From an uncultured Candidatus Saccharibacteria bacterium (lineage in GTDB: Bacteria; Patescibacteriota; Minisyncoccia; Phycocordibacterales; JAKFXT01): a stretch of DNA of 64,000 bases. The notes beneath the pieces are model-generated. The model was not told the origin of the DNA. It worked only from the letters and a program-made list of their open reading frames with translations, and ran no database searches. The stretch covers positions 84,493 to 148,492 of the forward strand of contig CAYLPX010000001.1 in the NCBI GenBank assembly GCA_964385825.1, read 5' to 3'. Positions 1,360 to 55,195 of this stretch are shown here, piece after piece (the first letter of the stretch is position 1; the number at the start of each line of letters is the position of its first letter). Position numbers and translations under genes: made by a program.

Positions 1360-1386
1360 CCGCCGGCGCGCTTTGCGCGCCGGCGG
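1360..1386 (-). terminator. GC-rich hairpin terminator for the minus-strand small gene
   Basis: ccgccggcgcgc-tttg-cgcgccggcgg palindrome immediately 3' of the 1405..1623 ORF on the minus strand. Confidence 0.5.
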
Positions 1387-1404
1387 GCTGGTTGGTGGGA
1401 GTGA

Positions 1405-1623
1405 TTACCGCTCCCCGAGGAAAAAGGTACGGCGCCGCTTCTTGCGGTCAAGCAAGAGGATGCATGTCCCCGATATTCCCGTGATGAATTCCGCAAAGAG
1501 GAACCAGAAATCTGTTTCCGTCTCTGGATACCCTACGAAAAATGGGCTGGAGTCCATGAGCTGGGCATGGACCAGAAAGAAGGCTGCGACGGTGATACCG
1601 ATCGCGATTATGCGGCTCCGCAT
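1405..1623 (-). CDS. hypothetical small (72 aa) membrane protein encoded in a GC-rich patch
   Basis: ATG at 1623 is preceded by AAGGAGAG. There are two hydrophobic segments and a basic C-tail. Local GC is clearly above flanking DNA, and a hairpin lies downstream. Confidence 0.45.
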   Translation of the reverse strand: MRSRIIAIGITVAAFFLVHAQLMDSSPFFVGYPETETDFWFLFAEFITGISGTCILLLDRKKRRRTFFLGER

Positions 1624-1693
1624 GTTTCTCTCCTTGAGTTATGCTACTAATTAGTAGCCTAACTCCAACTACCCAAAAGTCAATTGTTTTTCA

Positions 1694-1733
1694 CCAAGAT
1701 TTAATTCCAGCGATAGCTGGAATTAAATCTTGG
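1694..1733. repeat. perfect 18-bp-stem hairpin (ccaagatttaattccagc / gctggaattaaatcttgg, loop gata), about 80 bp upstream of the ABC transporter start
   Basis: Exact inverted repeat read directly from the sequence. A second 16-bp palindrome gctactaattagtagc lies at 1643-1658. Confidence 0.6.
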
Positions 1734-1814
1734 TTCTTGGTCGTTTACCACTCCTTTTTGTGACTGATTATGGAGATTTAGTTTATTTTAGAGCGTTGCT
1801 ATATAATTATTTTT

Positions 1815-3608
1815 ATGGCGTCTGAAAAAACTACAACTACCAAAGGAGATTTCAAAAAAGGATTAAAGGCTATCATATTTCGTCACCTCAAACCATATAG
1901 ACGCGAAATAAATTTACTTTTAATACTCGGATTGATTTCCGCAGTACTTAATGGTTTTGTTCCTTTTGTAACTGGCCGCTTTTTTGATGCACTCATACAT
2001 ATGTCCCAGGGGGTAGCAGAGGTTAAATTACTTACTCCCTGGATTCTCTTTTTTATACTATGGTGTGTAATACAGTTTTTGGTAAATATTGTTGACTGGT
2101 ATATACAAAAGGTTAATAGACACATTGATAATAAAAGCCATTTTGGAATTCAGGCTGCAGGGCTCGCTCATCTTTTACGTTTACCCATGAGTTTTCACAA
2201 AAAAGAAAGAAGCAACGGATTAATTCAAAAAATAAGTGATGTTAGTTGGCGAGTCGCAAGTATGGGAAATACCGTACTTAGCCTTGTACCAAGTTTTATT
2301 AGTGTGTTTGTCGGCATACTTCTTTCTTTTACGCTTAATATAGTATTGGCTTCAGTGCTCTTGGTAGGTATGGTAGTTTATGCAATAATTCTTTTCCGTT
2401 TGGTTTTGCCGACCGCCGAATTAAATAAAAAAGGACATGAAGTTTGGAATAAGGAGTGGGATGCCGCTTCAGCTTCGGTCCAACAAGTAGAAAATGTTAA
2501 GCAGGCAACGGCGGAAGATTATGAAGAGAAAAAAATTACAGAAGGACTGGCTAAGAAGACGTATGGTATTTGGATTTCTCTCGCAAATCGTTGGAGTACT
2601 ATTGGAGGACTACAAAGACTCGTTGTTTTTGTAGTGCAGGTAACAATTTTTGTTTTGGCTATTGGGTATATTCAAAAAGGGATACTGACCGTAGGAGAAC
2701 TTATTACTTTCAATGGCTATGCGCTCATGATTTTGGGACCAATAGTTTCTTTGGGATACAACTGGCAGAATATTCAAAATAGTATTATTGCTGCAGCATT
2801 AGCCGAAGATATTTTTGGAGCAGAAACAGAAGTTTATAACAAAAATTCTAAAGAGAAAAACAAAATAGTTGAGGGAGTGGTAGAGTTTAGAGATGTAACA
2901 TTTCGTTATGCAAAAGATCAGCCAATAGTGCTGGATAAGGTAAGTTTTACAGTGGCAAAAGGAGAAGTAGTGGCGCTTGTGGGTAAAACAGGGGTGGGCA
3001 AGAGTAGTCTCATTGGATTATTAGGAGGATACTTTTTTCCAACTGAAGGCGAGGTGCTTATAGACGGCGTATCAACGAGAGAATTAAACCTAATTGATCT
3101 TCGCAGTAGTATGGCTACCGTACCGCAAGAAGTAGCGCTCTTTAATGATTCTATTAAAAATAATATAAAATACGGTTCGTTCTCTGTGTCGGATAAGACA
3201 TTGCTTCACGCAGCCAAAGAAGCTCATGTAGATGAGTTTGTGGAAAAGTTTCCTGAGAAATACGAACAAGAAGTGGGGGATAGGGGGGTTAAACTATCTG
3301 TTGGACAAAAGCAGCGCGTGGCTATCGCGAGAGCAATGCTACGTGACCCGAAGATTCTTATACTTGATGAGCCAACAAGCGCACTTGATATTGAAACAGA
3401 ACATTTTATTACAGCCTCGCTTGAAAAGCTAATGAAGGGACGTACGACGTTTATTGTGGCTCATCGTTTAAGTACAGTGCGTCGTGCTGATAAGATTTTG
3501 GTAATTGAAGAGGGAAAAATAGTTGAGGAGGGGAATCACGAAACTCTTATTAAAAAGCGTGGTGGAGTGTACAAAAAATTACACGAATTACATATTGGGC
3601 TCGCATAA
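1815..3608 (+). CDS. ABC transporter, fused permease/ATP-binding protein (MsbA/exporter type)
   Basis: N-terminal 6-TM domain. Walker A GKTGVGKSS, signature LSVGQKQRVAIARA, Walker B ILILDEPTSALD. Confidence 0.9.
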   Translation: MASEKTTTTKGDFKKGLKAIIFRHLKPYRREINLLLILGLISAVLNGFVPFVTGRFFDALIHMSQGVAEVKLLTPWILFFILWCVIQFLVNIVDWYIQKVNRHIDNKSHFGIQAAGLAHLLRLPMSFHKKERSNGLIQKISDVSWRVASMGNTVLSLVPSFISVFVGILLSFTLNIVLASVLLVGMVVYAIILFRLVLPTAELNKKGHEVWNKEWDAASASVQQVENVKQATAEDYEEKKITEGLAKKTYGIWISLANRWSTIGGLQRLVVFVVQVTIFVLAIGYIQKGILTVGELITFNGYALMILGPIVSLGYNWQNIQNSIIAAALAEDIFGAETEVYNKNSKEKNKIVEGVVEFRDVTFRYAKDQPIVLDKVSFTVAKGEVVALVGKTGVGKSSLIGLLGGYFFPTEGEVLIDGVSTRELNLIDLRSSMATVPQEVALFNDSIKNNIKYGSFSVSDKTLLHAAKEAHVDEFVEKFPEKYEQEVGDRGVKLSVGQKQRVAIARAMLRDPKILILDEPTSALDIETEHFITASLEKLMKGRTTFIVAHRLSTVRRADKILVIEEGKIVEEGNHETLIKKRGGVYKKLHELHIGLA

Positions 3609-3615
3609 AAAAACA

Positions 3616-3637
3616 GAGCGCGCATTGCTGCGCGCTC
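3616..3637. terminator. hairpin between convergent genes (ABC transporter and the 3642..3830 ORF)
   Basis: gagcgcgca-ttgc-tgcgcgctc. Confidence 0.45.
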
Positions 3638-3641
3638 GGGA

Positions 3642-3830
3642 CTAATCCCAGATTGGAGGCATGTTACCAGTGTCCTCTGGCAATCCCTCGGTGCCCGTAG
3701 GTGTTTCGAGGGCATCAAGGCCATTCTGATGTATGAACTTCTTTCCCGACCCATGTTCACTAGGAGGGGTATTGGCTGCAGCTGGCGAGGGACTTCCGTC
3801 TCCAACTGCTGGAAAAAAAAGTTTCTGCAT
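3642..3830 (-). CDS. hypothetical small protein (62 aa), GC-rich island gene C
   Basis: ATG at 3830 has GAGGGG 7 nt upstream. An upstream hairpin gagccgcg..cgcggctc (3852-3872) separates it from gene B. Confidence 0.35.
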   Translation of the reverse strand: MQKLFFPAVGDGSPSPAAANTPPSEHGSGKKFIHQNGLDALETPTGTEGLPEDTGNMPPIWD

Positions 3831-3884
3831 TTTCATTCCCCTCATGAAAGCGAGCCGCGGGTTGCGCGGCTCGGGTGTGCGGGG

Positions 3885-4220
3885 TCAGTCAGCCTCGGCG
3901 GGGGCTAGCCCGTAAAACTCGGCTTCGTGACGGTGTTCTACTGCTGTCAGTTTTCCACCACGCAGCCACGGCTTCAGCACCTGGAACTCAGCCTGTTTCC
4001 TGCTGAGTGCTTCTCCTGCGAGCCGTTTCATTTCGCAGGCCATGGCAGCATTGCCCATCATGCGAATCTCGGCCGAACGTGTTGTTCGCGCCGAACCGCT
4101 CATGCCGACCAGGAATTCATCCAAAAGCTGGCTCATTGCCCGGCGAGTATTGCCGTTGCATTCCGTGACGAGCTCTTTGGCTCGACTCTTCACAATTTCA
4201 TCTTGGTTCTTGCTTTTCAT
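3885..4220 (-). CDS. hypothetical protein (111 aa), GC-rich island gene B
   Basis: ATG at 4220 with GGGAGGAAG SD. Codon usage has high GC3, unlike neighbouring genes. Its own terminator follows. Confidence 0.5.
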   Translation of the reverse strand: MKSKNQDEIVKSRAKELVTECNGNTRRAMSQLLDEFLVGMSGSARTTRSAEIRMMGNAAMACEMKRLAGEALSRKQAEFQVLKPWLRGGKLTAVEHRHEAEFYGLAPAEAD

Positions 4221-4401
4221 GCCACTTCCTCCCAAGGAAAAAACGACGATTGAAAAACATACCAGTAACGCTGAAAATAATTATACTACTAACCCCCCAA
4301 ATGTCAAATACTGCTATGGGGGTAAAAATAGGAGGGAAAATAAAAGGGGCGCGGCCGGATATTCTCGGTCGCGCCCTGGGGTGTCGTTGCATGTTGCCCT
4401 T

Positions 4402-4812
4402 TCAGCGAACCAGTGAAAGCCGGTGTCGCACACTTTTTTCGGAGGGGAGCACCTGGGTGGTTGCGCCCATTTTGAAGTTCTGGTGCACCCACGTTTCGAT
4501 TTCCCACAGGAGTTCCGGCAGGGGCGTGATGGCGCCATTCTCGGAGCGAACCATGGGGAAGTGGATGCTCAGAATCCAGGACCCGTCAGGGCCGCGTACA
4601 AGTTCGCTCGCCGCCTCGTAGGCCCGCAGTTCACGTCGGAACTTTTCGGTATCCCTTCTGTTGGCGTGGCCAGGGAGAGGGATGCGGCAGCCCACACGAG
4701 CCTCCTTTTCGAAGTTGGCGGGGAAGTAGATCTCCGCTTCAGCGCCCGACTTGTGGAGAAGCCCTCGTACTTCCCGTACGAAAGCTCTCCAGACAGACAA
4801 TATGATTTGCAT
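4402..4812 (-). CDS. hypothetical protein (137 aa), GC-rich island gene A
   Basis: ATG at 4812 with GGAGG 5 nt upstream. It is followed on the minus strand by hairpin 4347-4376 plus a T-rich run. Confidence 0.5.
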   Translation of the reverse strand: MQIILSVWRAFVREVRGLLHKSGAEAEIYFPANFEKEARVGCRIPLPGHANRRDTEKFRRELRAYEAASELVRGPDGSWILSIHFPMVRSENGAITPLPELLWEIETWVHQNFKMGATTQVLPSEKSVRHRLSLVR

Positions 4813-4886
4813 ACAAGCCTCCATTAAATGGTGGGTGGGAACAGGTGTTACTGGTTAAAAATAGTACAATAGAAGGGTGTATAAGT

Positions 4887-4919
4887 AAACCCCTCCGGCG
4901 CAAAGCGCCGGAGGGGTTT
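4887..4919 (-). terminator. intrinsic terminator of yqeY (perfect 15-bp stem)
   Basis: aaacccctccggcgc-aaa-gcgccggaggggttt. Confidence 0.6.
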
Positions 4920-4934
4920 ACCAACCTTACTTTT

Positions 4935-5381
4935 TTAAAACAAGGTTTCTACCACTTCCTTAACTAGGGCGCCATCAGCAGCCCCCTTAAGTTCTTTCAT
5001 AAGTGCCCCCATGAAAATACCCATTTTAGATTTATCGGTTGCGCCAAGCTTTTCTTTGAGCTCTTTTGCTATTTTTTCTATTTCATCGCGTCCCATTTGA
5101 GCTGGAAGATACACCTCAAGAAGTTTCAGTTCAGCTTGTTCATTTTCTACCAGGTCAGTGCGCCCACCTTTAGTGAACTGCTCTATGGAGTCTTTGCGCT
5201 GCTTCACTGCGCGCTTAACCACCGCTAATTCTTCCTCGGGAGTGAGTTTGTCCTGTGGGGTGCGGCCTTTGGCCACGAGCTCATTGGTAAAAGCAGAAAG
5301 GAGTCCGCGAATAACATTTAGTTTTACCGAGTCTTTGGCACGCATAGCATCCTTCATTTCTTCACGTAGTTTCTCTTGCAT
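4935..5381 (-). CDS. yqeY: GatB/YqeY domain protein
   Basis: Full-length similarity to the YqeY family (C-terminal GatB-like helical domain). Confidence 0.8.
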   Translation of the reverse strand: MQEKLREEMKDAMRAKDSVKLNVIRGLLSAFTNELVAKGRTPQDKLTPEEELAVVKRAVKQRKDSIEQFTKGGRTDLVENEQAELKLLEVYLPAQMGRDEIEKIAKELKEKLGATDKSKMGIFMGALMKELKGAADGALVKEVVETLF

Positions 5382-5470
5382 AGAGGTTTATTTTATTGGG
5401 TTATATAGTACTTATCTTAGCAAAAATGAGGGTAATCGTGAATGCGGAAGGCTCGTGTTAAAATAACGGA

Positions 5471-6562
5471 ATGTCTACAACCACTATTGTTATTATCTTT
5501 GTTGCACTCCTTTTTCTACTCCTTAATGGCTTTGCTTTTTGGGCAGTACTTCGTCGTATGGGTACTAAAGATGAGGGGGAGGGGGATAGTGGCATGAAGC
5601 TCTTACTTGAGCAAATGAATGAGCTTACGCGTCGCCAAGGTGACCTTACGAGCATGATGGATAAGAAGTTGCTTGAAAGCTCCCGCGCCATGACCGAGTC
5701 ACTTCACCGTACCGGTGAAACTACTACGCGTATTATTACTGATATTACCGAGAAACTCACCCGACTCGACGAAACCAATAAACAGGTAGTCTCTTTTGCT
5801 GATCAACTTCAGTCTCTCCAGGATATTTTGAAGAACCCGAAACAGCGAGGAATACTTGGTGAGTATTATCTTGAAACACTACTTAAAAATGTACTGCCTC
5901 CTGGGGGGTATCAAATGCAGTATGGGTTTAGCGATGGAGAGATAGTTGATGCAGTGGTGTTCGTGCAGGATAAGATTATACCTATAGACTCTAAGTTCAG
6001 CTTGGAGAACTACAATCGCTGGGTAGAGGAGAAGAACGAACTTGAGAAAATCCGCTTTGAGAAAGTGTTTGTCAACGACCTCAAACTGCGCATACAAGAA
6101 ACTGCTAAATATATTCGCCCGGGAGAAAAGACCATGGACTTCGCGTTCATGTTTATCCCGCATGAGGCTATTTACTATGATTTACTGGTGAACAAAATCG
6201 GCGGGGTAGATGAGAGTAGTGACAACCTTATTCAAAGAGCGGCTACAAAATATAAAGTAATTATTGTTTCTCCTACTTCGTTCCTCGCGTACCTTCAGAC
6301 GGTGCTTCAGGGACTTAAGGCACTAGCCATAGAGGAGAAGGTGGTTGAGGTCATAAAGCGAGTAGGAGAACTTGGTAAACATATGAAGAGCTATGAAGAG
6401 TATCATGGCAAACTCGGAAATGCGCTTGGAACAGTGGTGAATCACTTTAATGCATCAGGTAAGGAGTTTAAAAAGATAGATAAAGATGTGATGCGTATCA
6501 CCGGCGAGAGTATGGATATAGCGACTATTGCACTTGAGGGGCCTGAAAAAGATGTGGAGTAA
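5471..6562 (+). CDS. rmuC: DNA recombination protein RmuC
   Basis: N-terminal TM segment, a long coiled coil and a C-terminal RmuC nuclease-like domain. Confidence 0.85.
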   Translation: MSTTTIVIIFVALLFLLLNGFAFWAVLRRMGTKDEGEGDSGMKLLLEQMNELTRRQGDLTSMMDKKLLESSRAMTESLHRTGETTTRIITDITEKLTRLDETNKQVVSFADQLQSLQDILKNPKQRGILGEYYLETLLKNVLPPGGYQMQYGFSDGEIVDAVVFVQDKIIPIDSKFSLENYNRWVEEKNELEKIRFEKVFVNDLKLRIQETAKYIRPGEKTMDFAFMFIPHEAIYYDLLVNKIGGVDESSDNLIQRAATKYKVIIVSPTSFLAYLQTVLQGLKALAIEEKVVEVIKRVGELGKHMKSYEEYHGKLGNALGTVVNHFNASGKEFKKIDKDVMRITGESMDIATIALEGPEKDVE

Positions 6563-6780
6563 ATAAAAAAAGCCGCCCTTCGCAGGACGGCTCAATGCAG
6601 GGGATCTTCCTGCTTTGATGCAACGCGTACAACATGCCCTCCCGAGCATGTTGGCATACTACAGTATTTAACAGTAAATAAAAGGAGGCAGGCTCGGGGG
6701 AGCCCACCTCAAGGGGAAGGGTAGATGAAGACCCTTACGTCAGAAGAGGAGTCAACTGACGCTCTTTAATAGTACTATAA
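6563..6780 (-). ncRNA. candidate structured RNA (about 220 nt) ending at a minus-oriented terminator
   Basis: The 530-bp gap has no ORF and is moderately GC-rich, with five or more stable hairpins. Hairpin 6571-6592 is followed by a U7 run only on the minus strand. Confidence 0.2.
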
Positions 6781-6784
6781 AATT

Positions 6785-6868
6785 AAAAAAAGAGGGCGGC
6801 CGTGTGAAGGTCGCCCAAATCCATCCTTGCGGATGGTGGAGGAGACTGGGTGTTCCAGTTAGGTAGCA
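6785..6868 (-). ncRNA. candidate small RNA (about 85 nt)
   Basis: Extended -10 TGtTATAGT lies on the minus strand (plus 6875-6883). Hairpin CCATCC-gcaa-GGATGG is followed by terminator GGGCGACC..GGCCGCCC plus a U7 run on the minus strand (plus 6785-6816). The RNA contains CUCCUCC. Confidence 0.25.
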
Positions 6869-7055
6869 CAGTCCCATAGCTAGGACTATAACATATATAG
6901 CTCGTGCAAAATTATCTCAAAATAAATAATTAAAAAAGTAAAGGCCTGTGTGTCACTAAATGGCAGAGAATTGGCTTAAAGGGAAGTCTCCCCCTAGTCT
7001 GGAGTATTTGGGGGCTAGGCTTAAATTTGATTGAATATTGCCCCCTGGGGGATAC

Positions 7056-7083
7056 TTGCAAACCGGCTAGTTTTGTGTAGAAT
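7056..7083 (+). promoter_or_regulatory. sigma70-like promoter of rplU (TTGCAA-16-TAGAAT)
   Basis: The -35 and -10 hexamers are read directly. The predicted start lies only a few nt before the rplU ATG. Confidence 0.4.
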
Positions 7084-7092
7084 ACGTGAATT

Positions 7093-7449
7093 ATGGCTAC
7101 AAAGAAAGCTACAACTAAGAAGGCCTCATCCGACGAATTCGCCGTTATTTTTACTGGTGGAAAGCAGTACAAAGTCTCTGTGGGCGAGAAGATTGATATT
7201 GAAATTATGAAAGGGGACTTCAAGGAGGGGGATAAGGTCGTTTTTGATAAGATTCTCATGGTGGATGATGGCAAGGATACAACAATTGGTGCTCCATATA
7301 TAAAGGAAGCTAAGGTTGAGGGTAAAATCACTAAGATTGCTAAGCATGATAAGGTTATGGTAACGAAGTACAAGGCCAAGAGCCGCTACCTTAAAACCAA
7401 CGGGCACCGCCAGCCATTTTTTGAAGTAGAAATCACTACTCTAAAATAA
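7093..7449 (+). CDS. rplU: 50S ribosomal protein L21
   Basis: AVIxTGGKQYKV motif and full-length L21 similarity. Confidence 0.9.
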   Translation: MATKKATTKKASSDEFAVIFTGGKQYKVSVGEKIDIEIMKGDFKEGDKVVFDKILMVDDGKDTTIGAPYIKEAKVEGKITKIAKHDKVMVTKYKAKSRYLKTNGHRQPFFEVEITTLK

Positions 7450-7454
7450 GAAAT

Positions 7455-7484
7455 AAAAAAAGCGCGCCGCGAGGCGCGCTTTTG
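7455..7484. terminator. bidirectional terminator after rplU
   Basis: aaaaaagcgcgcc-gcga-ggcgcgctttt. Confidence 0.6.
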
Positions 7485-7508
7485 CGCTATGAGGCCCCCC
7501 TTGGGCTA

Positions 7509-7874
7509 CTAGCCTCTCCTGCGCAGGTGATGAGTCAGTGCCATGACACTGAAAACAAGGGTTGATATGTGGAAGGTGCAGTAGGCAATACTCCCGGCCA
7601 GCAGCCACACAACCATGTGGCTAAGAAGTTGCACTACAATGTCCGGATGCTCCATCCCCACATTCTTGATTGAAAGAATACCAATCAGGAACAATAGTGC
7701 ACAGTACACAAGGACAACCCTTTCCCCAGCCGTTTTCGCAGTTATCTCCTTTTCCGGGGCTAAATGTACAACCAGGATGGTGAGCCCCCAGAGGAGAAGC
7801 CCGAGATGGACCCCTCCTGTGGTGGCAATGATGACGAAGGTCTGGATTGACCAAGCAAATTCAAGCTCACTCAT
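7509..7874 (-). CDS. hypothetical polytopic membrane protein
   Basis: ATG at 7874 with AAGGAAGG SD. About 4 TM segments. It is translationally coupled to the upstream gene with a 1-nt gap. Confidence 0.5.
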   Translation of the reverse strand: MSELEFAWSIQTFVIIATTGGVHLGLLLWGLTILVVHLAPEKEITAKTAGERVVLVYCALLFLIGILSIKNVGMEHPDIVVQLLSHMVVWLLAGSIAYCTFHISTLVFSVMALTHHLRRRG

Positions 7875-7875
7875 C

Positions 7876-8223
7876 TCACACCTTCCTTTTTCGTACGAGG
7901 AGCAGAACAATGACAGCACTCCCGATTACGAGATATGCTCCTAAGCTGACAATGAGGCCATCTAAAAGAGCGTTCCCGATCATTTCCCCGCTCGGAGGAC
8001 CCACACCCTCATGGTGCGTGAGGCGGGTATAGGAATGAGTGAAGAAGACCCCGACGCTGAAGACGCCGGCGATGAGTAGCTGGAATTTCCCCCGCGTAAG
8101 TTTCAAAAAAGTCCTTACCTCCGACAGAATTGCGTCGATCCCGAAGGTAAAGGGCATTCCCATCACAGCAAGGGCCACAATCACTTTCCCGTGACCCGCA
8201 AGTACTTCCAAGATTTCAGGCAT
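7876..8223 (-). CDS. small membrane protein, possibly Mrp/Mnh antiporter subunit G-like (weak)
   Basis: ATG at 8223 with GAGGAG SD. Two or three TM segments. The motif YTRLTHHEGVGPPSG resembles the MnhG YxRxHAAGKxxTLG region. Confidence 0.35.
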   Translation of the reverse strand: MPEILEVLAGHGKVIVALAVMGMPFTFGIDAILSEVRTFLKLTRGKFQLLIAGVFSVGVFFTHSYTRLTHHEGVGPPSGEMIGNALLDGLIVSLGAYLVIGSAVIVLLLVRKRKV

Positions 8224-8291
8224 GGTGCCACTCCTCAAGGTTCAAAACAGATTGCATTAAAACACTAAAATACTGGTATTACAAGAAGAGA

Positions 8292-8909: not shown

Positions 8910-8959
8910 AGGGGGAGTTTATAGCAAAACAGATTATAGTTTATAGTGAAAAATAAAAG

Positions 8960-10402: not shown

Positions 10403-10498
10403 TAGTAAGATTCTACCACGAGCAGAATTAGAGAAGGGAAGGGAAAAAGGGTCTAAACAGGGGAAAGACTGTGCATAATCCGGTTGAATGACAAGGCT

Positions 10499-10528
10499 AT
10501 TGCTAAATAGTAAAATATGTTATATAAT
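10499..10528 (+). promoter_or_regulatory. sigma70-like promoter (TTGCTA-18-TATAAT, TGt extended -10) for the GC-rich small gene
   Basis: Hexamers read directly. The 5' leader is about 55 nt. Confidence 0.4.
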
Positions 10529-10588: not shown

Positions 10589-10891
10589 ATGTTCAATCTC
10601 GTCAATGCCAATCCCGAAAGGGATACCACGCCAGTCGTTCACGTAGAGCGGCTGGCGGACATCATTCACAGCATGCTGGGGGCGAGGATTGTATATCGTC
10701 CTTGGGAAGTGGCAGGGCCGTCCGAGCAGGATGAAATCCTGCTGCAGAAGGCGGAAGAAATCTGCGTGGTCACCGTGAAGGCGGGAGATCGCCGTCAGGC
10801 CTTTGAGGTCCATAACCTTGGGGCCCAATTCATCGGGCTGGTGAAGATTTTGAGTCAGCAGACCGGCTTCGAGTACCGCGCGGTATTCTGA
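10589..10891 (+). CDS. hypothetical protein (100 aa) in a GC-rich islet
   Basis: ATG is preceded by GAGGAGTAAAGAGG. Local GC is clearly above flanking DNA. A canonical terminator follows immediately. Confidence 0.45.
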   Translation: MFNLVNANPERDTTPVVHVERLADIIHSMLGARIVYRPWEVAGPSEQDEILLQKAEEICVVTVKAGDRRQAFEVHNLGAQFIGLVKILSQQTGFEYRAVF

Positions 10892-10909
10892 GACGGTACT
10901 CGGGTGGGT

Positions 10910-10942
10910 GCGCGCAGCAATGCGCGCATTTTTTTATTTTTT
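10910..10942 (+). terminator. intrinsic terminator (gcgcgca-gcaa-tgcgcgc plus T run), shared with the convergent cysS 3' end
   Basis: GC hairpin followed by TTTTTTTATTTTTT. Confidence 0.65.
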
Positions 10943-15324: not shown

Positions 15325-15326
15325 TT

Positions 15327-17100: not shown

Positions 17101-17123
17101 CGTTACGTCTTTTCAAAACCCTG

Positions 17124-17195
17124 TCGGGATACTGGGAGTCGAACCCAGTGTTATGTGCACCCCATGCACATGTGTTACCGGTACACTATACCCCG
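17124..17195 (-). tRNA. tRNA-Pro (anticodon GGG)
   Basis: Minus-strand cloverleaf. Acceptor CGGGGTA pairs with TATCCCG. D stem is GTGT/ACAC. Anticodon stem TGTGC/GCACA carries loop ATGGGGT. T arm is CTGGG-TTCGACT-CCCAG. CCA is not encoded. Confidence 0.85.
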
Positions 17196-20086: not shown

Positions 20087-20196
20087 TATCTTTTGCGTAA
20101 ATAACTATAGGCTATGCCGAGGAGAAAAACTTATCCACTTCCCCGTCTGTAGTAATTTTTTAGTTTGGACGCGGTTCGTTATTTACGCAAAAGATA
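20087..20196. repeat. 18-bp perfect inverted repeat (tatcttttgcgtaaataa / ttatttacgcaaaagata) with a 74-bp spacer, followed by a nested 11-bp inverted repeat gcatgttgtgc/gcacaacatgc (20199-20241) and three copies of gcacaaNat
   Basis: Exact matches read from the sequence. No convincing ORF spans the region. Confidence 0.6.
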
Positions 20197-20306
20197 GCGC
20201 ATGTTGTGCAACAAAGGGTTCCCCTATATCGCACAACATGCTTGGCAAAAAACCTTCTAATTGCATGAATGTTTTTTGCTTAAAATGCACTTAAAATTTT
20301 AATACA

Positions 20307-20333
20307 AAAACAGGGGAGTCTCTCCCCTGTTTT
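20307..20333. repeat. palindromic hairpin aaaacaggggag-tct-ctcccctgtttt, copy 1 (immediately 3' of the 2-TM gene stop; acts as a bidirectional terminator)
   Basis: Identical to copy 2 at 21496-21530 except for one loop base. Confidence 0.7.
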
Positions 20334-20335
20334 AA

Positions 20336-21457
20336 TTAGTCACCAGTTTTTTGAGTTTTAAGTAGATTTACTAACTCTAGTATTAATTGCTTATCATATT
20401 TAATTTTGTTCTCAATTACCGGCTCCGTAAAAATTACGTTTAAACTTCTTAATAATATTGGATCTTTTGCGGGCTCATTTGATGGAAATTGATTTCTCAG
20501 ATTTATCATTGTCTGAGTCGCAACATCTTTAAAGGAGTATGCCTCATAAAGGCGTCGATGGTTTGAATATTGTTGTGCGCTGAAAATAGTAAAGTAAGCT
20601 GGAATTAGAAGAATAGCGAAATGTAAAAGGGCTGATCCTATACTTATATTCTCACCGCTACGTATTAGTAATAGTAAACTAAGGGCAACAATTGTTGCTC
20701 CAAACAATGAGCTAAGCAGGAGCCAAAATATAGAGCCACTAGGATACGGGATTTTAAATTTATTAAAAAATGGGGTCTTTAGCCAATTAATTTTAAGTGT
20801 TTTGTGTTCTGCGGCTTTTTTAGCCGAATCAGTTGCATTTGCTTTTAATATTAAACTCACTGCCTCCTTATCTTTTTCAATTAAGTCCCTTGCACGTTCT
20901 AAGGCTAGTTTAATTAAATCCGCATTCTCAATTAATTCATCGATTAGCTCCTCTGTTGGTGAAAATTTATTTTTTAATTCTGTAAGTTCAGCTGCAATAT
21001 TTTTAATATTATCTTTTTCAATATCCCACTCATTTTTAAAAGATTTTAAAATTACATCGTATTTATTTTCGAATAAATCTTCAATAAAATTTTTATCTAG
21101 AAAGTCTGATTGCTGGGTGAATAAAAAATGATAACGGCCTAAGCTATTATAAATTTCAACCTCAAGACCTTTTAAATCATTAATTAATTCTTGTCTACGA
21201 GGTACATCTAGGAATGTAATAACTCTACTATCGATAAAGGTGAGTAAGGATTGAAGGGAATTGTTAATTTGGCTTTGAATTGTTGCTGGGAGTGTGCTAA
21301 TTATCTGATTTGATACTATATTGTCAAAAAAACTTTTTAATCTTTTAAAAACTGGTTCAGTATCGCTAAGGTCGCCAGTGGGACCAAGATCTTTTCTACT
21401 AAGTCTTGCCCAGTCAATTAAACCATAGCGCTCAAATTTTTGGTATATATCTTGCAT
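20336..21457 (-). CDS. hypothetical protein (about 373 aa). N-terminal 230-aa helical cytoplasmic domain, two TM helices and an 80-aa C-tail. Very AT-rich codon usage.
   Basis: Long ORF with local GC near 30%, well below neighbouring genes. TM segments are WLLLSSLFGATIVALSLLLLI and LLHFAILLIPAYFTIF. The start is ATG 21457 or TTG 21463. Confidence 0.55.
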   Translation of the reverse strand: MQDIYQKFERYGLIDWARLSRKDLGPTGDLSDTEPVFKRLKSFFDNIVSNQIISTLPATIQSQINNSLQSLLTFIDSRVITFLDVPRRQELINDLKGLEVEIYNSLGRYHFLFTQQSDFLDKNFIEDLFENKYDVILKSFKNEWDIEKDNIKNIAAELTELKNKFSPTEELIDELIENADLIKLALERARDLIEKDKEAVSLILKANATDSAKKAAEHKTLKINWLKTPFFNKFKIPYPSGSIFWLLLSSLFGATIVALSLLLLIRSGENISIGSALLHFAILLIPAYFTIFSAQQYSNHRRLYEAYSFKDVATQTMINLRNQFPSNEPAKDPILLRSLNVIFTEPVIENKIKYDKQLILELVNLLKTQKTGD

Positions 21458-21495
21458 ACTCAATTTAGTCGAAGTCTACACCTGTCCTAAAAAAA

Positions 21496-29516: not shown

Positions 29517-29545
29517 TTGCCAAATAAGGGGTTTTGTCCTATAGT
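29517..29545 (+). promoter_or_regulatory. sigma70-like promoter TTGCCA-17-TATAGT for the GC-rich small gene/RNA
   Basis: Read directly. The leader is about 65 nt. Confidence 0.4.
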
Positions 29546-29616: not shown

Positions 29617-29874
29617 ATGACCGAGTTGGCAAGAAACCTGCCGGATAGTCCGGCGCGGTGCAATTGTGCCCCAGGGCACAGTCGTTGCGCTGGCAAGACC
29701 AGCAAGAACACGTGCCCAGGCATGGCAGTAACGCCCGTTCGGTGCGTTTCGCGGCACATGGACAAGGGGGTGGTGGGGTTTCGCCTGACAGTTTCTGTTC
29801 GGGCAGACGAGACCACCCATTTCGTCAGGTCGAACTGGCAGGGCGCAACCCCCGAAATCGAAGCTCGGGCCTGA
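29617..29874 (+). CDS. hypothetical Cys-rich small protein (85 aa) in a GC-rich islet (alternatively a structured ncRNA)
   Basis: AGGAGGG lies 6 nt before the ATG. The N-terminus reads CNCAPGHSRCAGKTSKNTCPG. A strong terminator follows. Composition is low-complexity, so protein coding is not certain. Confidence 0.35.
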   Translation: MTELARNLPDSPARCNCAPGHSRCAGKTSKNTCPGMAVTPVRCVSRHMDKGVVGFRLTVSVRADETTHFVRSNWQGATPEIEARA

Positions 29875-29888
29875 ATCGGCAATTCGGA

Positions 29889-29918
29889 AGCCGCGGCGTA
29901 CGCCGCGGTTTTTTTTAT
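29889..29918 (+). terminator. intrinsic terminator (gccgcggcg..cgccgcgg plus T8), abutting the aspS stop
   Basis: GC hairpin followed by TTTTTTTTATTT. Confidence 0.65.
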
Positions 29919-46883: not shown

Positions 46884-46905
46884 ACTACTAGTTTAACATG
46901 GGAGG

Positions 46906-48150: not shown

Positions 48151-48202
48151 ATTATAACAGGAGAAGCTGTTAGCTTGTAGTTTTGGGTGTTAGTAGAGAA
48201 AA

Positions 48203-48906: not shown

Positions 48907-48909
48907 ACT

Positions 48910-50664: not shown

Positions 50665-50688
50665 AATAGAGAGATTTTACCACATTGG

Positions 50689-51252
50689 TTAGTTGGGTAA
50701 AAATGCCGCTTTGGCTTGCGTTAAAACCTCTCTATGCATCATCACGAGTGGAGCTTCTTTGCCAAGTTTTTCTTCAATGATTGCAAAAACCTCATCATGG
50801 AACCAGGCATATTGCGTAGGGTCCTTAATCAAAATCTTCTCAGGGTTTTCAAGAGCGCTTAAAAGATTATGGATTTTGTCAGCCGAAGCAATGAGCGCAG
50901 TATCTTCCCCAGCGTTTTTTAATTTCCCTATATAGAGCTCTTTGCGTGCACGCCATGAGGAGAGATGCTTATCCTTTTTTAAAAGTTCAGTCACGGTTAA
51001 AACTAGAGAGGCCACACGCTTACCTAAGTGCTCTTCTATTTTTTGTAAGGGATAATCAGTGTCCTCAAGTATGTCGTGGAGGAGGGCGGCTGAGATCACC
51101 TCTTCATCGGTACTGTGGTTACTTACCATACTCGCAACTGAGTAGAGGTGGCTGACATAAGGTAGTGGGTAATCATAGGCAGCGCGGTATATGCCGTCGT
51201 GGGCAGCCGTAGCTATTTTAATCGCTTTTTCTATTCTGGGAGTGTAATTCAT
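50689..51252 (-). CDS. HD-domain phosphohydrolase, RelA/SpoT-type (p)ppGpp hydrolase-like
   Basis: AAHDGIYR...HLYSVASMV...ALLHDILEDT matches the Rel/Spo HD domain signature. The start is taken 4 nt after the UDG stop. Confidence 0.6.
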   Translation of the reverse strand: MNYTPRIEKAIKIATAAHDGIYRAAYDYPLPYVSHLYSVASMVSNHSTDEEVISAALLHDILEDTDYPLQKIEEHLGKRVASLVLTVTELLKKDKHLSSWRARKELYIGKLKNAGEDTALIASADKIHNLLSALENPEKILIKDPTQYAWFHDEVFAIIEEKLGKEAPLVMMHREVLTQAKAAFLPN

Positions 51253-51256
51253 TAGG

Positions 51257-51862
51257 TTAAAGGAATTGCTGGAGTATAGAAAAGTCACGTTTCAGTTCAT
51301 CCTTTGTTTTATTGTTATACACGGCAACAGCTGGATGGTAAAGGGGAATGATTTTGACTTCTCCATAGGAAGTTTGAGCTTTGAACACTTTGCCGTGAAT
51401 TTTACTAATGGGTGCAAGGTCACTTTCGAGGTTGAATTTTTCCATAATGTACTTCATGGAATATCGACCTAAGGTAGCTAAAACCTTTGGCTTGATGATA
51501 GTAATTTGTCTATCAAGAAATGGGCCATAGACAGATATTTCTTTTGGTGTCGGGTCACGGTTTTCTGGCGGTCGGTCTTTTACAATATTAGTTATATATA
51601 CTTTTTCACGTGGGAGTTTAATAGAAGCTAGTAGTTCGTCGAGCACACGGCCAGAGGCCCCGCAAAATGGTTTTCCCGTTAGGGCTTCGTTTTTACCAGG
51701 AGCTTCACCTATAAACATAATGGAAGTATCAAAACTTCCTTCGCCGATGACGGGGAACACTTTATTTTTAATACGTTCGGCATAAAGAGGAGAGTTTTTA
51801 AGCACTAAAATTTCATCAGAAATTTCTTTCATATAAAGCTCCTTTTCCTCCCTTTTTTTCAT
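51257..51862 (-). CDS. uracil-DNA glycosylase, family 4
   Basis: GEAPGKNEALTGKPFCGASG motif. Confidence 0.8.
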   Translation of the reverse strand: MKKREEKELYMKEISDEILVLKNSPLYAERIKNKVFPVIGEGSFDTSIMFIGEAPGKNEALTGKPFCGASGRVLDELLASIKLPREKVYITNIVKDRPPENRDPTPKEISVYGPFLDRQITIIKPKVLATLGRYSMKYIMEKFNLESDLAPISKIHGKVFKAQTSYGEVKIIPLYHPAVAVYNNKTKDELKRDFSILQQFL

Positions 51863-51895
51863 AGGGTTAGTATACCAAAATGTAAAACCCGCTTG

Positions 51896-52336
51896 TTAGG
51901 CGGGTCTTCCTCCGTGGTCGCGGTTTGGTCGGCAGGGTGAACTTACGCGGTCCGGTCCCGCGTGTCCAGTTGCCGGGTTGGCGGCGATTGCCACACCGTC
52001 AGTGCGGCGCCGCGGTGGATCACGTGAATGGGACATGGGACGCTCGACTTTTCGAGTGACTGCGAAAGCTTCTACGGTCAAAAGGGAAATGTCAGGCGAT
52101 GGTAACACTGGCAGATCGAAGCCAAGGCGAAGCTCGTGCTCCTGCTTTGGCTCGGACTCAGTGAGTACCACTACTGGCAAGTTCGTCAGCTCTTTGATGA
52201 GCCTTAATTCTTGCCCGCCTTCGAGCGTTTGCGCGTCAACAATGACTTGTATGCCGCGCATATGTGCGAGAGCCTCTAGGGCTGCCAAATCAAACGGCCC
52301 AAGAAGGCCGCTACTGATGAGCAATACGCGCATCAT
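51896..52336 (-). CDS. hypothetical protein (146 aa), GC-rich. N-terminal part weakly resembles a degenerate receiver domain, followed by an Arg/Pro-rich tail.
   Basis: ATG ATG at 52336 with AAGGAGG 4 nt upstream. Promoter TTGTCA-17-TATGCT (minus strand, 52375-52403). Terminator hairpin at 51887-51905. PVVVLT-like block is present but the acidic pocket (DD) is absent. Confidence 0.4.
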   Translation of the reverse strand: MMRVLLISSGLLGPFDLAALEALAHMRGIQVIVDAQTLEGGQELRLIKELTNLPVVVLTESEPKQEHELRLGFDLPVLPSPDISLLTVEAFAVTRKVERPMSHSRDPPRRRTDGVAIAANPATGHAGPDRVSSPCRPNRDHGGRPA

Positions 52337-52438
52337 GGTGCCTCCTTTGTGGGTTGTGTACGAAACTAAAAAAGAGCATACCAGCAAAGCCCCCTTTTGA
52401 CAAGGAGATACGGTATAAGGAAGGTGCAAGCACAATAC

Positions 52439-52472
52439 AGTACGCATTCTCCCAATTGGGAGAATGCGTACT
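52439..52472. promoter_or_regulatory. perfect 34-bp palindrome agtacgcattctccc-aatt-gggagaatgcgtact upstream of the GC-rich gene promoter
   Basis: 15-bp arms with a 4-nt centre, read directly. There is no adjacent U run on the minus strand, so it is more likely an operator or protein-binding site than a terminator. Confidence 0.5.
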
Positions 52473-52516
52473 AAAATATTCCTTTTTTTATAAACTATAA
52501 ACTTCTCTGATACAAA

Positions 52517-52786
52517 CTACTTTATCGCTCCTTCTGCTTTAAGTAAGGCTCTCTTTTTCTCGGGGCCACCGCGGTTGTATTCTCCGATCTTGCCGTCACT
52601 CCGTATAACGCGGTGGCATGGCACAGAGGGGTCGTAATTATTTTTCATAATGGTTCCAACGGCCCTAGCCGCACCAGGATTACCAGCGTGCAGAGCAACC
52701 GCTCCGTAAGTCATAGTTTTCCCTTTGGGGATACTTCTAACCACTTTACGTACCCGTTCTTCAAAAAGAGTCTCTTGTTTTTTCAT
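52517..52786 (-). CDS. methylated-DNA--protein-cysteine methyltransferase, DNA-binding/catalytic domain only (89 aa)
   Basis: The PCHRVI active-site motif is retained. Confidence 0.75.
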   Translation of the reverse strand: MKKQETLFEERVRKVVRSIPKGKTMTYGAVALHAGNPGAARAVGTIMKNNYDPSVPCHRVIRSDGKIGEYNRGGPEKKRALLKAEGAIK

Positions 52787-52789
52787 AGC

Positions 52790-53569
52790 TTACTTTTTCT
52801 TGCGCAAATTCGCATCAGCCATGGCAGCTGCTTTGCGATAGGCACAGTATTGGCAGGTCTCACTGGGGTTTGGTAATTTTTCTTCTAGCAAACACTGTTT
52901 AATTTGTTTTAGTGTTTCTGGAATCCAGGATGGATCTCCTTTGTATGGTAACAGCACTACATCAAACTCTAGTTTGGCATCAAAGGCTTCCCTATCCTGC
53001 TTACCATTTACATACACAAAGTAACCAGTCTCTGATACTTTGAAGCCATTCTGTCTAAAGAGCCACTGATAGACTTCCATTTGCCTCTTGTATCCTATCT
53101 GCCATTCAGCATCGAGGTTTATTTCAGCCTCAGCGTCAGCCTTACTAGTTGCTTTGTAGTCAGCAATAATAAGTTCACCTTCTGGGTTTACCCACACATC
53201 ATCTATCCCACCGCGGATAATAAGATTTAGTTCCTTATCTAAATATTTTATGCCGTTGCGAAGGGCATCACGCCATTCATCCATACGATCGTCTTGTAGC
53301 GGCACAGCATCAAGGCCGTAGCTCTCAAGTAATGGATGCTTACTCTGAGCTTTGCGATGAATATCAAATTCTTTTTTAAGTAAGGCATCAACGGCATTGT
53401 TAAGGGTGAAGGGAAAAGAATCTGGTCGACCTATACCAAGTCGGCGATCAAGATAAAAGCAGCGAGCACACTCAAGAAAGAGGTCGATTTTGCTACGAGA
53501 AAGTTCAAAGGGCTCCTTACTTTCTGGATTAAATATTTTGTAAGTTTTAACTTTATAGAGAAATGCCAT
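52790..53569 (-). CDS. PD-(D/E)xK nuclease with Cas4-like Cys4 cluster (RecB-family exonuclease fold)
   Basis: GGIDDVWVNPEGELIIADYKAT gives a D...E.K core. Cys pairs CARC (N-terminal) and CQYC (C-terminal) match the Cas4/AddB Fe-S arrangement. Confidence 0.55.
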   Translation of the reverse strand: MAFLYKVKTYKIFNPESKEPFELSRSKIDLFLECARCFYLDRRLGIGRPDSFPFTLNNAVDALLKKEFDIHRKAQSKHPLLESYGLDAVPLQDDRMDEWRDALRNGIKYLDKELNLIIRGGIDDVWVNPEGELIIADYKATSKADAEAEINLDAEWQIGYKRQMEVYQWLFRQNGFKVSETGYFVYVNGKQDREAFDAKLEFDVVLLPYKGDPSWIPETLKQIKQCLLEEKLPNPSETCQYCAYRKAAAMADANLRKKK

Positions 53570-53616
53570 GGAGCAATAGGTAAAGTAATAAGCGGACAAA
53601 CAAAAAGAAAGCAGGC

Positions 53617-54117
53617 TTACTCTATGGGGTCGTGGCGAAGCTTTTCTTCAACTCCCCAGAGGGTAGAGAAGATAAAAAGGGTGAGCAGGGTTGTCATAAC
53701 AGCAATGGTGTAATAACCAAAAGCTACTGCAATACCTATACCATTAGCTACCCACATACCGGCAGCAGTAGTAACTCCTACCACTCTGTTGTCGTGGTAA
53801 ATGATGATTCCTCCACAAAGAAATCCTATACCCATCACAATACCAGCGGCCATACGCATCGGGTCGAAGTTGGTAAAGCCAATGAAGCGTTCTGTAGCGA
53901 GGAGTGAAATAATAACTAGAAGACAGGATCCCAAAGAAACGAAAGCGTATGTACGCATCCCCACCATTTTGTGCGATAGAGTACGCTCGGCTCCAATAAT
54001 GGCTCCAAGCCCCACCGCCGTTACCAGTTTTATAATAAGAGGAAGATTGGTAGTAAGGTAGGTTGCAAATGGTTCTGGGATCATAAATAGTGAGTTAATT
54101 ATAATGTATTTTGACAA
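53617..54117 (-). CDS. MgtC/SapB family membrane protein
   Basis: GAIIGAERTLSHKMVGMRTYAFVSLGS signature and four TM segments. Confidence 0.7.
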   Translation of the reverse strand: MSKYIIINSLFMIPEPFATYLTTNLPLIIKLVTAVGLGAIIGAERTLSHKMVGMRTYAFVSLGSCLLVIISLLATERFIGFTNFDPMRMAAGIVMGIGFLCGGIIIYHDNRVVGVTTAAGMWVANGIGIAVAFGYYTIAVMTTLLTLFIFSTLWGVEEKLRHDPIE

Positions 54118-54938
54118 AGAACCTTTCCTTCTTCAAGTACTTTGTTCATTTTTGCTTCACTCATGCCAAGTTTTTGAAGTGCTTCTCTATTCTCCCCTAC
54201 TGATTTGCAAAGAACAACCCCACCATTTAGGAGGTTAAGCTTCTCCTGCTTGTTTAAGGTAGTAAGACAGGTTATGGGATGTATTCCAGTTTGCTCTATA
54301 AGGTCTTGCAGGTTACCAAAACGTGGATAGGTCCAACTAAGTACCTTCATACCCTTACAATTGGCATACTGTACTGCCTGCTTAGTGAACTTAGTGTTGG
54401 TGATAAGCCATGCTTCGTCCACCGGTCGCTCGCCGCGCTCCGCTCGATACTTTTTAATATCGTCAATGCGAGAGTTTACATAGAGAGCCACTTTAACATC
54501 AGATTTAATACCGAGTTGGTTGTGATACTTTACTTCTCCCAAGATAGATTTTTGTTCATTTTCAGCCACTAGGTCTACTTCATGTTCCACGCAGGAGCCT
54601 TGGAGTACGACACCAGTTTCAACTTTAAAGCCCTTGGCCTTAAATATTTCTCCTATAAAATCCTCAAAAGGAAATCCTGATGGACCGAGCTCCATAACCG
54701 CACGTTTTAGTGAGTAACGCATAGCTGCAGGCTTTTCCAGTGAGCGTAAGTGGTCATAGGCTAGTTTGTAGATTAGGCCGGTAGGCATGCCGGGTTTTAT
54801 CTCGCTTTTGACCAGCTTAACGACAGCTGTAATTGATTTGTCATTAGCGCCAGAGCGGTGGAGGGAGTGAATGAGCTTGCTTACATCGAAAGCTTCTAGC
54901 TCACCATTTTCTTTCATGACGAGAAGTGGTTTTTTCAT
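54099..54938 (-). CDS. ATP-cone domain fused to a restriction-endonuclease (Mrr-like PD-(D/E)xK) domain
   Basis: An N-terminal ATP-cone (as in NrdR, about 90 aa) is followed by FEDFIGEIFKAKGFKVE...EVDLVAENEQKSILGEVKYH. Confidence 0.55.
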   Translation of the reverse strand: MKKPLLVMKENGELEAFDVSKLIHSLHRSGANDKSITAVVKLVKSEIKPGMPTGLIYKLAYDHLRSLEKPAAMRYSLKRAVMELGPSGFPFEDFIGEIFKAKGFKVETGVVLQGSCVEHEVDLVAENEQKSILGEVKYHNQLGIKSDVKVALYVNSRIDDIKKYRAERGERPVDEAWLITNTKFTKQAVQYANCKGMKVLSWTYPRFGNLQDLIEQTGIHPITCLTTLNKQEKLNLLNGGVVLCKSVGENREALQKLGMSEAKMNKVLEEGKVLCQNTL

Positions 54939-54951
54939 TTACTGTAGTATA

Positions 54952-54986
54952 GCAAAAAAAATGCCCGGCGCAGAACTCGCGCCGGG
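54952..54986 (-). terminator. strong minus-strand intrinsic terminator (cccggcgc-agaactc-gcgccggg plus a U8 run)
   Basis: Read directly. It terminates the transcript coming from mnmA. Confidence 0.65.
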
Positions 54987-55195
54987 ACTTGCTCGTTTTG
55001 AGGCTTGATTCAGCCTCTTTGCGTGTTGCATGCACTGATTGCGACAAGGGCCGCAAGGGTGCAGAGCAGAAAGAACGACCTGTACTGTGCAGGGCAGACC
55101 ATCCCCGCCGGGCCACATTGATACGTTTGGGGGCCTGTGGAAAGCCCCCCGATTCCTGCGTGCATGCCCATCTCCTTTGTGTTGAGACTTTTTTA
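54987..55195 (-). other. 209-nt GC-rich structured element between the mnmA stop and the terminator (3' UTR or independent sRNA)
   Basis: There is no plausible ORF; the candidates overlap mnmA or are low-complexity. Hairpins include gaggct-tgattc-agcctc and gggggc-tttccaca-gccccc. Local GC is clearly above flanking DNA. Confidence 0.3.

Follow-up and report, generated by a model that had tools for sequence, protein, structure and literature searches.

Small orphan genes led by Shine-Dalgarno sequences in GC-rich islets among the core genes of a Saccharibacteria contig

Background

Bacteria belonging to the candidate phyla radiation (CPR) have many small genes of no known function, which are hard to annotate. 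Here we describe seven GC-rich patches, called islets, in a 64,000-nucleotide stretch of an uncultured Candidatus Saccharibacteria bacterium (assembly GCA_964385825.1, contig CAYLPX010000001.1, positions 84,493 to 148,492; this whole stretch is the window, and all positions refer to it). The islets hold ten small genes, one to three per patch and 51–146 amino acids (aa) long. In being short, lineage-restricted, deviant in composition, patchy and placed between core genes, these resemble ORFans, atypical genes and genomic islets; for laterally acquired genes the comparison is the 'atypical' class of GeneMarkS-2 (PMC6028130). They differ in that they are GC-rich, have been resident since before a species split, have their high GC limited to coding sequence (CDS), and are the only genes of the window led by a Shine-Dalgarno sequence (SD). 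No donor was found, and no mobility genes turned up, although no search aimed at integrases was made. Bacterial ORFans, by contrast, are usually AT-rich, as Daubin and Ochman reportedly found in 2004.

Genomes dominated by SD-less or leaderless initiation occur in Bacteroidetes. Two papers describe Deinococcus (PMC4007540) and mycobacteria (PMC4633059) in the same way. Like such genomes, the window has an SD on only a minority of its genes and a -10 box immediately before the ATG of many; its SD-led minority, however, consists of compositionally distinct small orphan genes and not of a housekeeping subset.

Integron cassettes also carry small, mostly orphan open reading frames (ORFs), with rapid turnover at fixed positions. 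The islets, however, stand alone at scattered sites, and each comes with a promoter and terminator of its own; comparing all of them with one another gave no common attC-like repeat, and no integrase was evident nearby, though none was searched for. The products called i1, i6, IxA and IxB below, short and hydrophobic and encoded in self-contained units, recall type I toxins and small membrane proteins, but no antisense RNA partner was identified, no family matched in Pfam or PADLOC, and the other islet proteins are predicted to be soluble. GC-rich islands on an AT-rich background are also reportedly known as non-coding RNA (ncRNA) genes of AT-rich hyperthermophiles (Klein, Misulovin and Eddy, 2002), whereas the islets are predicted translated ORFs in a bacterium at 43% GC that shows no sign of thermophily. 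In the literature searched, no work on SD usage or on small GC-rich genes of Saccharibacteria turned up.

Results and discussion

Two modes of translation start

The 45 nt upstream of each gene were listed, a GGAGG-type motif was sought 4–10 nt before the start codon, and the energy of the duplex with the anti-SD was calculated. For all ten islet genes, the duplex with the canonical anti-SD has an energy of -8.4 to -11.6 kcal/mol, with correct SD-ATG spacing in every case, whereas for 45 core genes with confident starts the values lie between -6.0 and +1.9 kcal/mol, with a median of +0.2. The two sets are fully separated (Mann-Whitney U = 0, p = 5e-7). Conversely, a TAnnnT -10 box ending 4–9 nt before the ATG is present in 22 of the 45 core genes and in none of the ten islet genes, which suggests that about half of the core genes are leaderless. 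In many core genes the box reads TAnAAT; examples lie at 1795–1814, 8910–8930, 51863–51880 and 54939–54958.

The same division holds in a sister species (assembly GCA_964541455.1, loci L121 and L134; locus L105 comes from a close relative of it), in which six islet genes lie at or below -8.2 kcal/mol and 37 core genes at or above -6.2 kcal/mol (U = 0, p = 5e-5). This complete split between islet and core genes is a new result. The confinement of SDs to the islet genes within the window is also the most informative feature of the region, and it had been overlooked in the original prediction, which was made by reading the sequence by eye.

Distant relatives show a weaker form of the split. In a set of 48 Saccharibacteria loci, a strong SD precedes a median fraction of 0.06 of the core ORFs, with up to four alternative starts allowed for each. 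When AT-rich relatives are pooled, small intergenic ORFs with an SD have a median GC3 difference (dGC3, GC3 being the G+C content of third codon positions) of +0.11, compared with +0.04 for those without one (p about 0.001). The association of high GC with an SD in small genes is thus seen beyond this one genome.

Anatomy of the islets

Both strands of the islets were read by eye, and promoters and terminators were sought with a signal scan. The islet genes and their signals are as follows.

1360–1386, minus strand: terminator of i1, 12 G-C pairs and a T-run
1405–1623, minus strand: i1, 72 aa, hydrophobic; GC 0.54, GC3 0.70; SD AAGGAGAG, duplex -8.5 kcal/mol
3616–3637, minus strand: terminator of i2a, from the signal scan
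3642–3830, minus strand: i2a, 62 aa (67 aa from an upstream ATG), rich in Pro, Gly and Thr; sits after the i2b terminator
3885–4220, minus strand: i2b, 111 aa, rich in Ala and Arg; SD at -10.2 kcal/mol
4280–4307, minus strand: promoter of i2b, TTGACA-16-TATAAT, 12/12 match; kept in the sister species
4402–4812, minus strand: i2c, 136 aa
7458–7483, minus strand: terminator of IxA, from the signal scan
7509–7874, minus strand: IxA, 121 aa, multi-pass hydrophobic; same length in the JGI gene call
7876–8223, minus strand: IxB, 115 aa, hydrophobic; SD GAGGAG; same length in the JGI gene call
10500–10528, plus strand: promoter of i3, TTGCTA-17-TATAAT
10589–10891, plus strand: i3, 100 aa, predicted alpha/beta protein; best-conserved islet gene
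10906–10931, plus strand: terminator of i3, from the signal scan
29517–29545, plus strand: promoter of i4, TTGCCA-17-TATAGT
29617–29874, plus strand: i4, 85 aa, rich in Cys and Arg; GC 0.62
29886–29913, plus strand: terminator of i4, from the signal scan
51884–51908, minus strand: terminator of i5, from the signal scan
51896–52336, minus strand: i5, 146 aa, with a predicted disordered Pro/Arg tail
52375–52403, minus strand: promoter of i5, from the signal scan
54964–54986, minus strand: terminator of i6, from the signal scan
55010–55165, minus strand: i6, 51 aa, rich in Cys, with a C-terminal hydrophobic segment; SD AAGGAG; the weakest coding call

In all ten genes the ORF ends 5–25 nt before, or inside, a GC-rich hairpin with a T-run. 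The scan recovered such terminators for i1, i2a, IxA, i3, i4, i5 and i6, and those of i2b and i2c were read in the sequence. Sigma-70-like promoters were found by the scan for i2b, i3, i4 and i5, and that of i2c, also kept in the sister species, was read in the sequence; the scan gave no convincing promoter for i1, i2a, IxA/IxB or i6. The pattern of GC among codon positions in the islet ORFs is that of coding sequence, and i1 is also called as a 72-aa gene by JGI. From their sequences, about half of the products are probably small membrane proteins.

The original prediction described self-contained expression units of atypical composition, and this description is borne out, with an SD, an ORF and a terminator for each gene and with no known family matched. 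Several of its details have to be changed. The strong SDs and terminators that it gave to the small ORFs of five patches are there, but recognisable promoters exist for only five of the ten genes. Its first patch does contain a small gene, yet the ORF read at 1373–1654 is an antisense ORF, and the real gene is i1. The sixth patch, taken as non-coding, has a 51-codon ORF (i6) behind AAGGAG. The six patches all stand, but the list was incomplete: the second holds three genes, and a seventh islet at 7450–8291 (IxA and IxB; ORF GC 0.51–0.53, GC3 0.59), which has the properties of the others, was passed over.

Read in the direction of transcription, the terminator hairpins of i2a (3618–3635) and i3 (10910–10927) have the same 18-nt core, GCGCGCAGCAATGCGCGC, perhaps by chance or perhaps through reuse of a terminator module.

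Base composition

Computation confirms that the six patches first noticed are richer in GC than their flanks. Their GC contents are 0.543, 0.547, 0.561, 0.585, 0.551 and 0.550 (patches 1–6), compared with a mean of 0.432 for the window and 0.34–0.45 for the flanks, and each belongs to the top 0.03–2.3% of equal-length windows within the 64 kb (z = 2.5–4.4). GC3 is 0.44–0.71 in the islet genes, and at least 0.56 in nine of the ten, which is above that of core ORFs of at least 150 aa (0.386 ± 0.045, n = 50). High GC is limited to the CDS and the terminator hairpin: promoters and 5' untranslated regions (UTRs) have 0.36–0.50 GC, and the non-coding spacers of islet 2 have 0.38–0.40 GC beside GC3 values of 0.60–0.70. 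Composition is atypical at all three codon positions, with less Lys and more Arg, Ala and Gly than in core proteins, and codon choice is rich in G-ending codons (CTG 0.26 vs 0.05 in core genes; CGG 0.22 vs 0.04). In composition and codon usage, the islet genes therefore look like horizontally acquired genomic islets.

The two tRNA genes of the window, tRNA-Glu(CUC) at 1074–1147 and tRNA-Pro(GGG) at 17123–17195, both read G/C-ending codons, and the corresponding codons are commoner in islet genes than in core genes (GAG 0.46 vs 0.36; CCC 0.26 vs 0.17).

A codon-adapted class of very highly expressed native genes, whose high GC3 would simply represent preferred codons, was among the explanations first offered, and consensus promoters, strong SDs and strong terminators are what such genes should have. 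It is scarcely credible here, because the genes for ribosomal proteins and IF-1 in the window have an ordinary GC3 of 0.30–0.44 and no SD, and because the compositional shift extends to codon positions 1 and 2 and to amino-acid content.

Structured ncRNAs with incidental ORFs are another reading, since islands of high GC are a classic mark of ncRNAs where the genome is AT-rich. The islet CDSs do fold more stably than their dinucleotide shuffles (mean z -1.9, n = 10; eight core controls, mean z -0.6), which is compatible, as weak evidence, with selection on mRNA structure or stability. Furthermore, open frames are cheap at such GC, and every islet also has a long antisense ORF, as is expected where A-ending codons are rare. 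However, no islet reaches an Rfam gathering score, and the ORFs span the distance from SD to terminator with correct SD-ATG spacing throughout; the joint chance of ten SD-framed ORFs of 51–146 codons is ~1e-13 by a base-composition estimate. Moreover, two of the genes, i3 and i2c, diverge in a protein-like manner, with dN/dS (the ratio of non-synonymous to synonymous substitution rates) well below 1, as expected under purifying selection. The structured-RNA proposal of the original prediction thus fares badly, and we consider it very improbable.

Orphan status

The ten islet proteins have no match in Pfam, NCBIfam, PHROGs or PADLOC, as the initial inspection by eye had suggested, and no toxin, antitoxin or defence model matched them in PADLOC, Pfam or NCBIfam. 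In Rfam, only the two tRNAs pass gathering scores in the whole window, and the sensitive mode gave only sub-threshold, chance-level hairpin matches in or near the islets. Nor do the islets form a dispersed family, as had been proposed: all-against-all comparison showed no likeness among them in protein or DNA, and no sign of paralogy or of a common mobile-element backbone. The DNA comparison gave only chance 8–13-mers, plus the one 18-nt match between two terminator hairpins.

Large-database searches covered i2c and i5. Among 5.8e9 proteins, i5 matched only itself and i2c had a single relative, a protein of the sister species; the i2c profile found only that same protein among 1.84e9 representative proteins. 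No homologue of an islet protein was found in about 100 related Saccharibacteria loci beyond the sister species. Phage records had no match for i3, i4 or i2b, plasmid records none for i3, and IMG/VR viral contigs none for i3 or i2c. Thus no identifiable homologue in a plausible donor was found for the islet proteins tested. The AlphaFold model of i3 is an alpha/beta fold with a predicted local distance difference test (pLDDT) score of 66, and its best Foldseek match in the PDB (E = 0.15) is to generic ferredoxin-like folds and not significant; the i2c model (pLDDT 59) was set aside.

The islets in the sister species

Core proteins are 77–98% identical between the window and the sister species, and fourfold-degenerate sites of core genes differ at 59%, about 80% of the way to the saturation expectation of 73%. 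Six junctions were examined in the sister species, and five of them hold an SD-led unit: those of islets 2, Ix, 3 and 5 have GC-rich ones, and that of islet 6 has a remnant of lower GC.

i3 slot (L121, 8062–8364): 83% identical, dN/dS 0.13; GC3 0.69 (window) vs 0.77 (sister); unannotated in the sister
i2c slot: 59% identical, dN/dS 0.21; promoter and 5' UTR ~88% conserved
i2a slot: 38% identical, alignment z = 7
i2b slot: 116-codon ORF at the corresponding site, essentially unalignable (27% identity, z about 1); promoter conserved
Ix slot: a single unalignable ORF of 130 aa, predicted membrane protein, in place of two
Slot 5 (L134, 3454–3621): 55-codon ORF compared with 146; homologous promoter, UTR, SD and terminator; unannotated there
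Slot 6: SD, 4-codon ORF and terminator; GC 0.43

Since the slots are common to both species, the units are old and predate the species split. The dN/dS values indicate that i3 and i2c are probably under purifying selection at the protein level. The promoters of islet 2 are ~85–90% identical in the sister, while the i2b CDS has diverged almost to randomness; conserved promoters beside diverged CDSs argue that the transcription signals are under selection. The i2b ORF is open in both species (111 and 116 codons) despite being unalignable. The coding bodies thus appear to range from well constrained (i3, i2c) to very labile, fast-evolving and sometimes lost. Four members of the protein clusters (P0014, P0018, P0011 and P0047) were all from the window's own species with different start calls. 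The i3 orthologue and the 55-aa ORF of slot 5 are uncalled in public annotation, and such genes may be under-called in CPR genomes.

Slots 5 and 6 bear on birth de novo, in which resident intergenic transcripts with a promoter, SD and terminator would have gained and lengthened ORFs in place. The orthologous sequence of slot 6 contains an ORF of only 4 codons compared with 51, and slot 5 has 55 compared with 146 behind a homologous promoter and SD; furthermore, the genes are orphans, and GC-rich sequence has few stop codons. Deletion in the sister explains both slots equally well, however, and deletion is the usual bias of reduced genomes. Together with the good constraint on the i3 and i2c proteins, and with no known source of GC-rich intergenic DNA in an AT-drifting genome, this makes birth in place decidedly unlikely.

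Neighbouring genes and distribution among relatives

The core genes of the window include those for a Mur ligase, an ABC exporter, YqeY, RmuC, L21, RecR, DnaB, CysRS, ScpA, AspRS, UDG, MnmA and ribosomal proteins. By closest genome match, these genes place the window in Saccharibacteria, and the nearest relatives of the ABC transporter are in Saccharibacteria metagenome-assembled genomes (MAGs). Identical contigs were found in several JGI, ENA and Logan samples, and therefore the gene arrangement is not an assembly chimera.

The islets have the patchy distribution at syntenic sites that is typical of horizontal islets. In a distant syntenic MAG (L006), the ABC and YqeY genes are 74 bp apart, without islet 2, whereas the window has the 1.3-kb islet 2 there. 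Among about 40 relatives, the shortest L21-RecR junction measures 4 bp and the longest 5 kb; for the DnaB-CysRS junction, the limits are 48 bp and 2 kb. The islets thus occupy intergenic positions that are variable across the clade. The AT-rich relatives L057, L052, L039, L100, L079 and L041 have small SD-led ORFs of their own, which are GC-rich in the body, are followed by terminators and in some cases lie at junctions that the islets also occupy. Two of these distant Saccharibacteria have homologous SD-led, GC-enriched ORFs of 67 and 70 aa (L039, 4334–4537, and L052, 9248–9460; 40% identity, E = 4e-8), and some small genes of such kind therefore form wider families.

The tRNA-Glu(CUC) gene has its last 20 nt repeated exactly at 1270–1289, 122 bp downstream, an arrangement resembling attL and attR sites that flank an integrated element now almost wholly deleted. 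Islet 1 begins ~70 bp past the second copy, and so adjoins the repeats without being enclosed by them; comparison of all islets at the DNA level gave no shared or flanking repeats for the others.

Old foreign genes or a maintained class

These data bear on the most serious competitor, neutral relics of horizontal transfer, in which the SDs came with DNA from a very GC-rich, SD-using donor (for example the actinobacterial host or its phages) and GC has since drifted AT-ward, unmaintained. The composition, atypical at every codon position with its preference for G-ending codons, would fit, as would the foreign-looking translation signal, the absence of islets from the same junctions in many relatives and the duplicated tRNA-Glu 3' end next to islet 1; Saccharibacteria are, moreover, reported to be naturally competent. 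The original prediction had likewise proposed repeated acquisition from a higher-GC donor. This can now hold only for old events, because in the sister species, whose fourfold sites are ~80% saturated, islets already stand at matching junctions. For i2c and i5, no donor homologue turned up among the billions of proteins searched.

Nor did the tested proteins have one in the phage, plasmid and viral collections, and every acquisition would have to date from just before the species split. The spacers of islet 2 are already genome-like beside their GC-rich CDSs. Elevated GC3 has been kept in both species though synonymous sites have mostly turned over, and GC3 is highest in i3, the oldest and best conserved of the genes, whereas genes not common to the sister have lower GC3; this is the opposite of what simple amelioration would give. 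From the fourfold divergence, we estimate that ~43% of compositional memory is left per lineage, so that a relic needs an ancestral GC3 of ~0.95–1.0, which is extreme; ~0.95 is permitted by the calculation and is not impossible for an actinobacterial donor. We consider a purely neutral relic unlikely. If old horizontal transfer is nevertheless all that happened, the islets would be a clean case of foreign genes kept only with their own ribosome-binding site.

The reading that we favour, with a probability of roughly 0.6, is that the islets are long-resident accessory small-protein genes, of old foreign or native origin, in a separate SD-dependent, GC-rich expression class. Sitting singly or in short runs between conserved housekeeping genes, each would be transcribed from its promoter into a leadered mRNA with a 5' UTR of ~30–60 nt, on which the strong GGAGG-type SD would recruit the 30S subunit by pairing with the anti-SD; the GC-rich ORF of 51–146 codons would then be translated, and the GC-rich hairpin with its T-run would end the transcript and insulate neighbouring genes. 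Core genes would take the other route, without an SD and, for about half of them, leaderless by way of a -10 box 4–9 nt before the ATG. A GC-rich, structured mRNA would be unable to use AU-rich or leaderless entry, which needs a 5'-terminal AUG or an unstructured start, and therefore only copies bearing an SD would be expressed and kept. On this inference, the SD and the high GC would be coupled in function, whichever of them came first, with selection as a possible force holding GC high.

Several points weigh against this interpretation. Transcription and translation of the islets are deduced from sequence signals, and the 16S rRNA 3' end is assumed to carry the canonical anti-SD. Core starts follow the longest ORF or homology, and some may therefore be wrong, although alternative starts gave few SDs. 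The coding calls for i1, i4, i5 and i6 have no cross-species support, and in i6 a frame of 51 codons might have arisen at random (probability about 0.15). The folding z-scores of the islet CDSs may partly stem from codon periodicity. Finally, a neutral relic of a very GC-rich donor is quantitatively feasible, with an ancestral GC3 of ~0.95 at the split decaying to ~0.64 now.

Should the split be genome-wide, SD plus high GC plus terminator would be a simple rule for recognising the accessory small-protein set of Saccharibacteria, whose members would be candidate factors in the host interaction, defence or membrane functions of an epibiotic parasite. A separate SD-dependent class would also provide a natural system for studying the coexistence of SD-dependent and SD-independent initiation in one cell, and would allow a test of whether base composition can be held off genomic equilibrium in one gene class.

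Small non-coding units in the RmuC-L21 gap

The gap between the RmuC and L21 genes contains a further set of small putative transcription units.

6563–6880, within the gap 6563–7092, minus strand: three tandem small predicted non-coding units (A, B and C), each with a -10 box and a terminator

Unit A (6787–6847) carries the CU-rich, anti-SD-like CUCCUCCACC, and unit B has CUCCUCU in a hairpin loop together with a CCUUCC or ACCUCC linker. These CU-rich motifs are complementary to GGAGG, which as an SD occurs in this window on islet genes only. Units B and C are ~85% identical to their sister-species counterparts, with compensatory changes in 4 of 51 predicted pairs; in unit A, the sister keeps the CU-rich motif while the hairpins differ. 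Unit A scores 37 bits (E = 1.4e-4) against the Betaproteobacteria toxic small RNA (sRNA) family RF02278, below the gathering score of 50, and this resemblance is one of architecture only. Duplex energies of sRNA and target over whole sequences were disregarded, being dominated by artefactual long-range structures, and counts of anti-SD-like motifs in the RmuC-L21 gap of relatives are confounded by the SDs of opposite-strand genes.

From the complementarity alone, it is conceivable that units A and B are anti-SD sRNA regulators acting on the SD-led genes as a group. A broader proposal, that Saccharibacteria have two translation regimes, with SD-independent or leaderless initiation for housekeeping genes, structured monocistronic SD-dependent mRNAs for the small accessory proteins, islet GC actively maintained and the SD-bearing mRNAs controlled together as an 'SD regulon' by the CU-rich anti-SD sRNAs (6676–6880), is speculative and on balance rather improbable.

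Other features

A perfect 34-nt palindromic terminator lies after the MGMT-like gene at 52439–52472, and four Logan contigs stop exactly there. Contigs ending at islet 5 had been considered as population variation, but the break inside the palindrome marks them as an assembly artefact. Elsewhere in the window, a 375-aa ORF at 20336–21463 (minus strand), within an AT-rich stretch at 20100–21300, is atypical in the opposite direction, with GC 0.32 and GC3 0.23.

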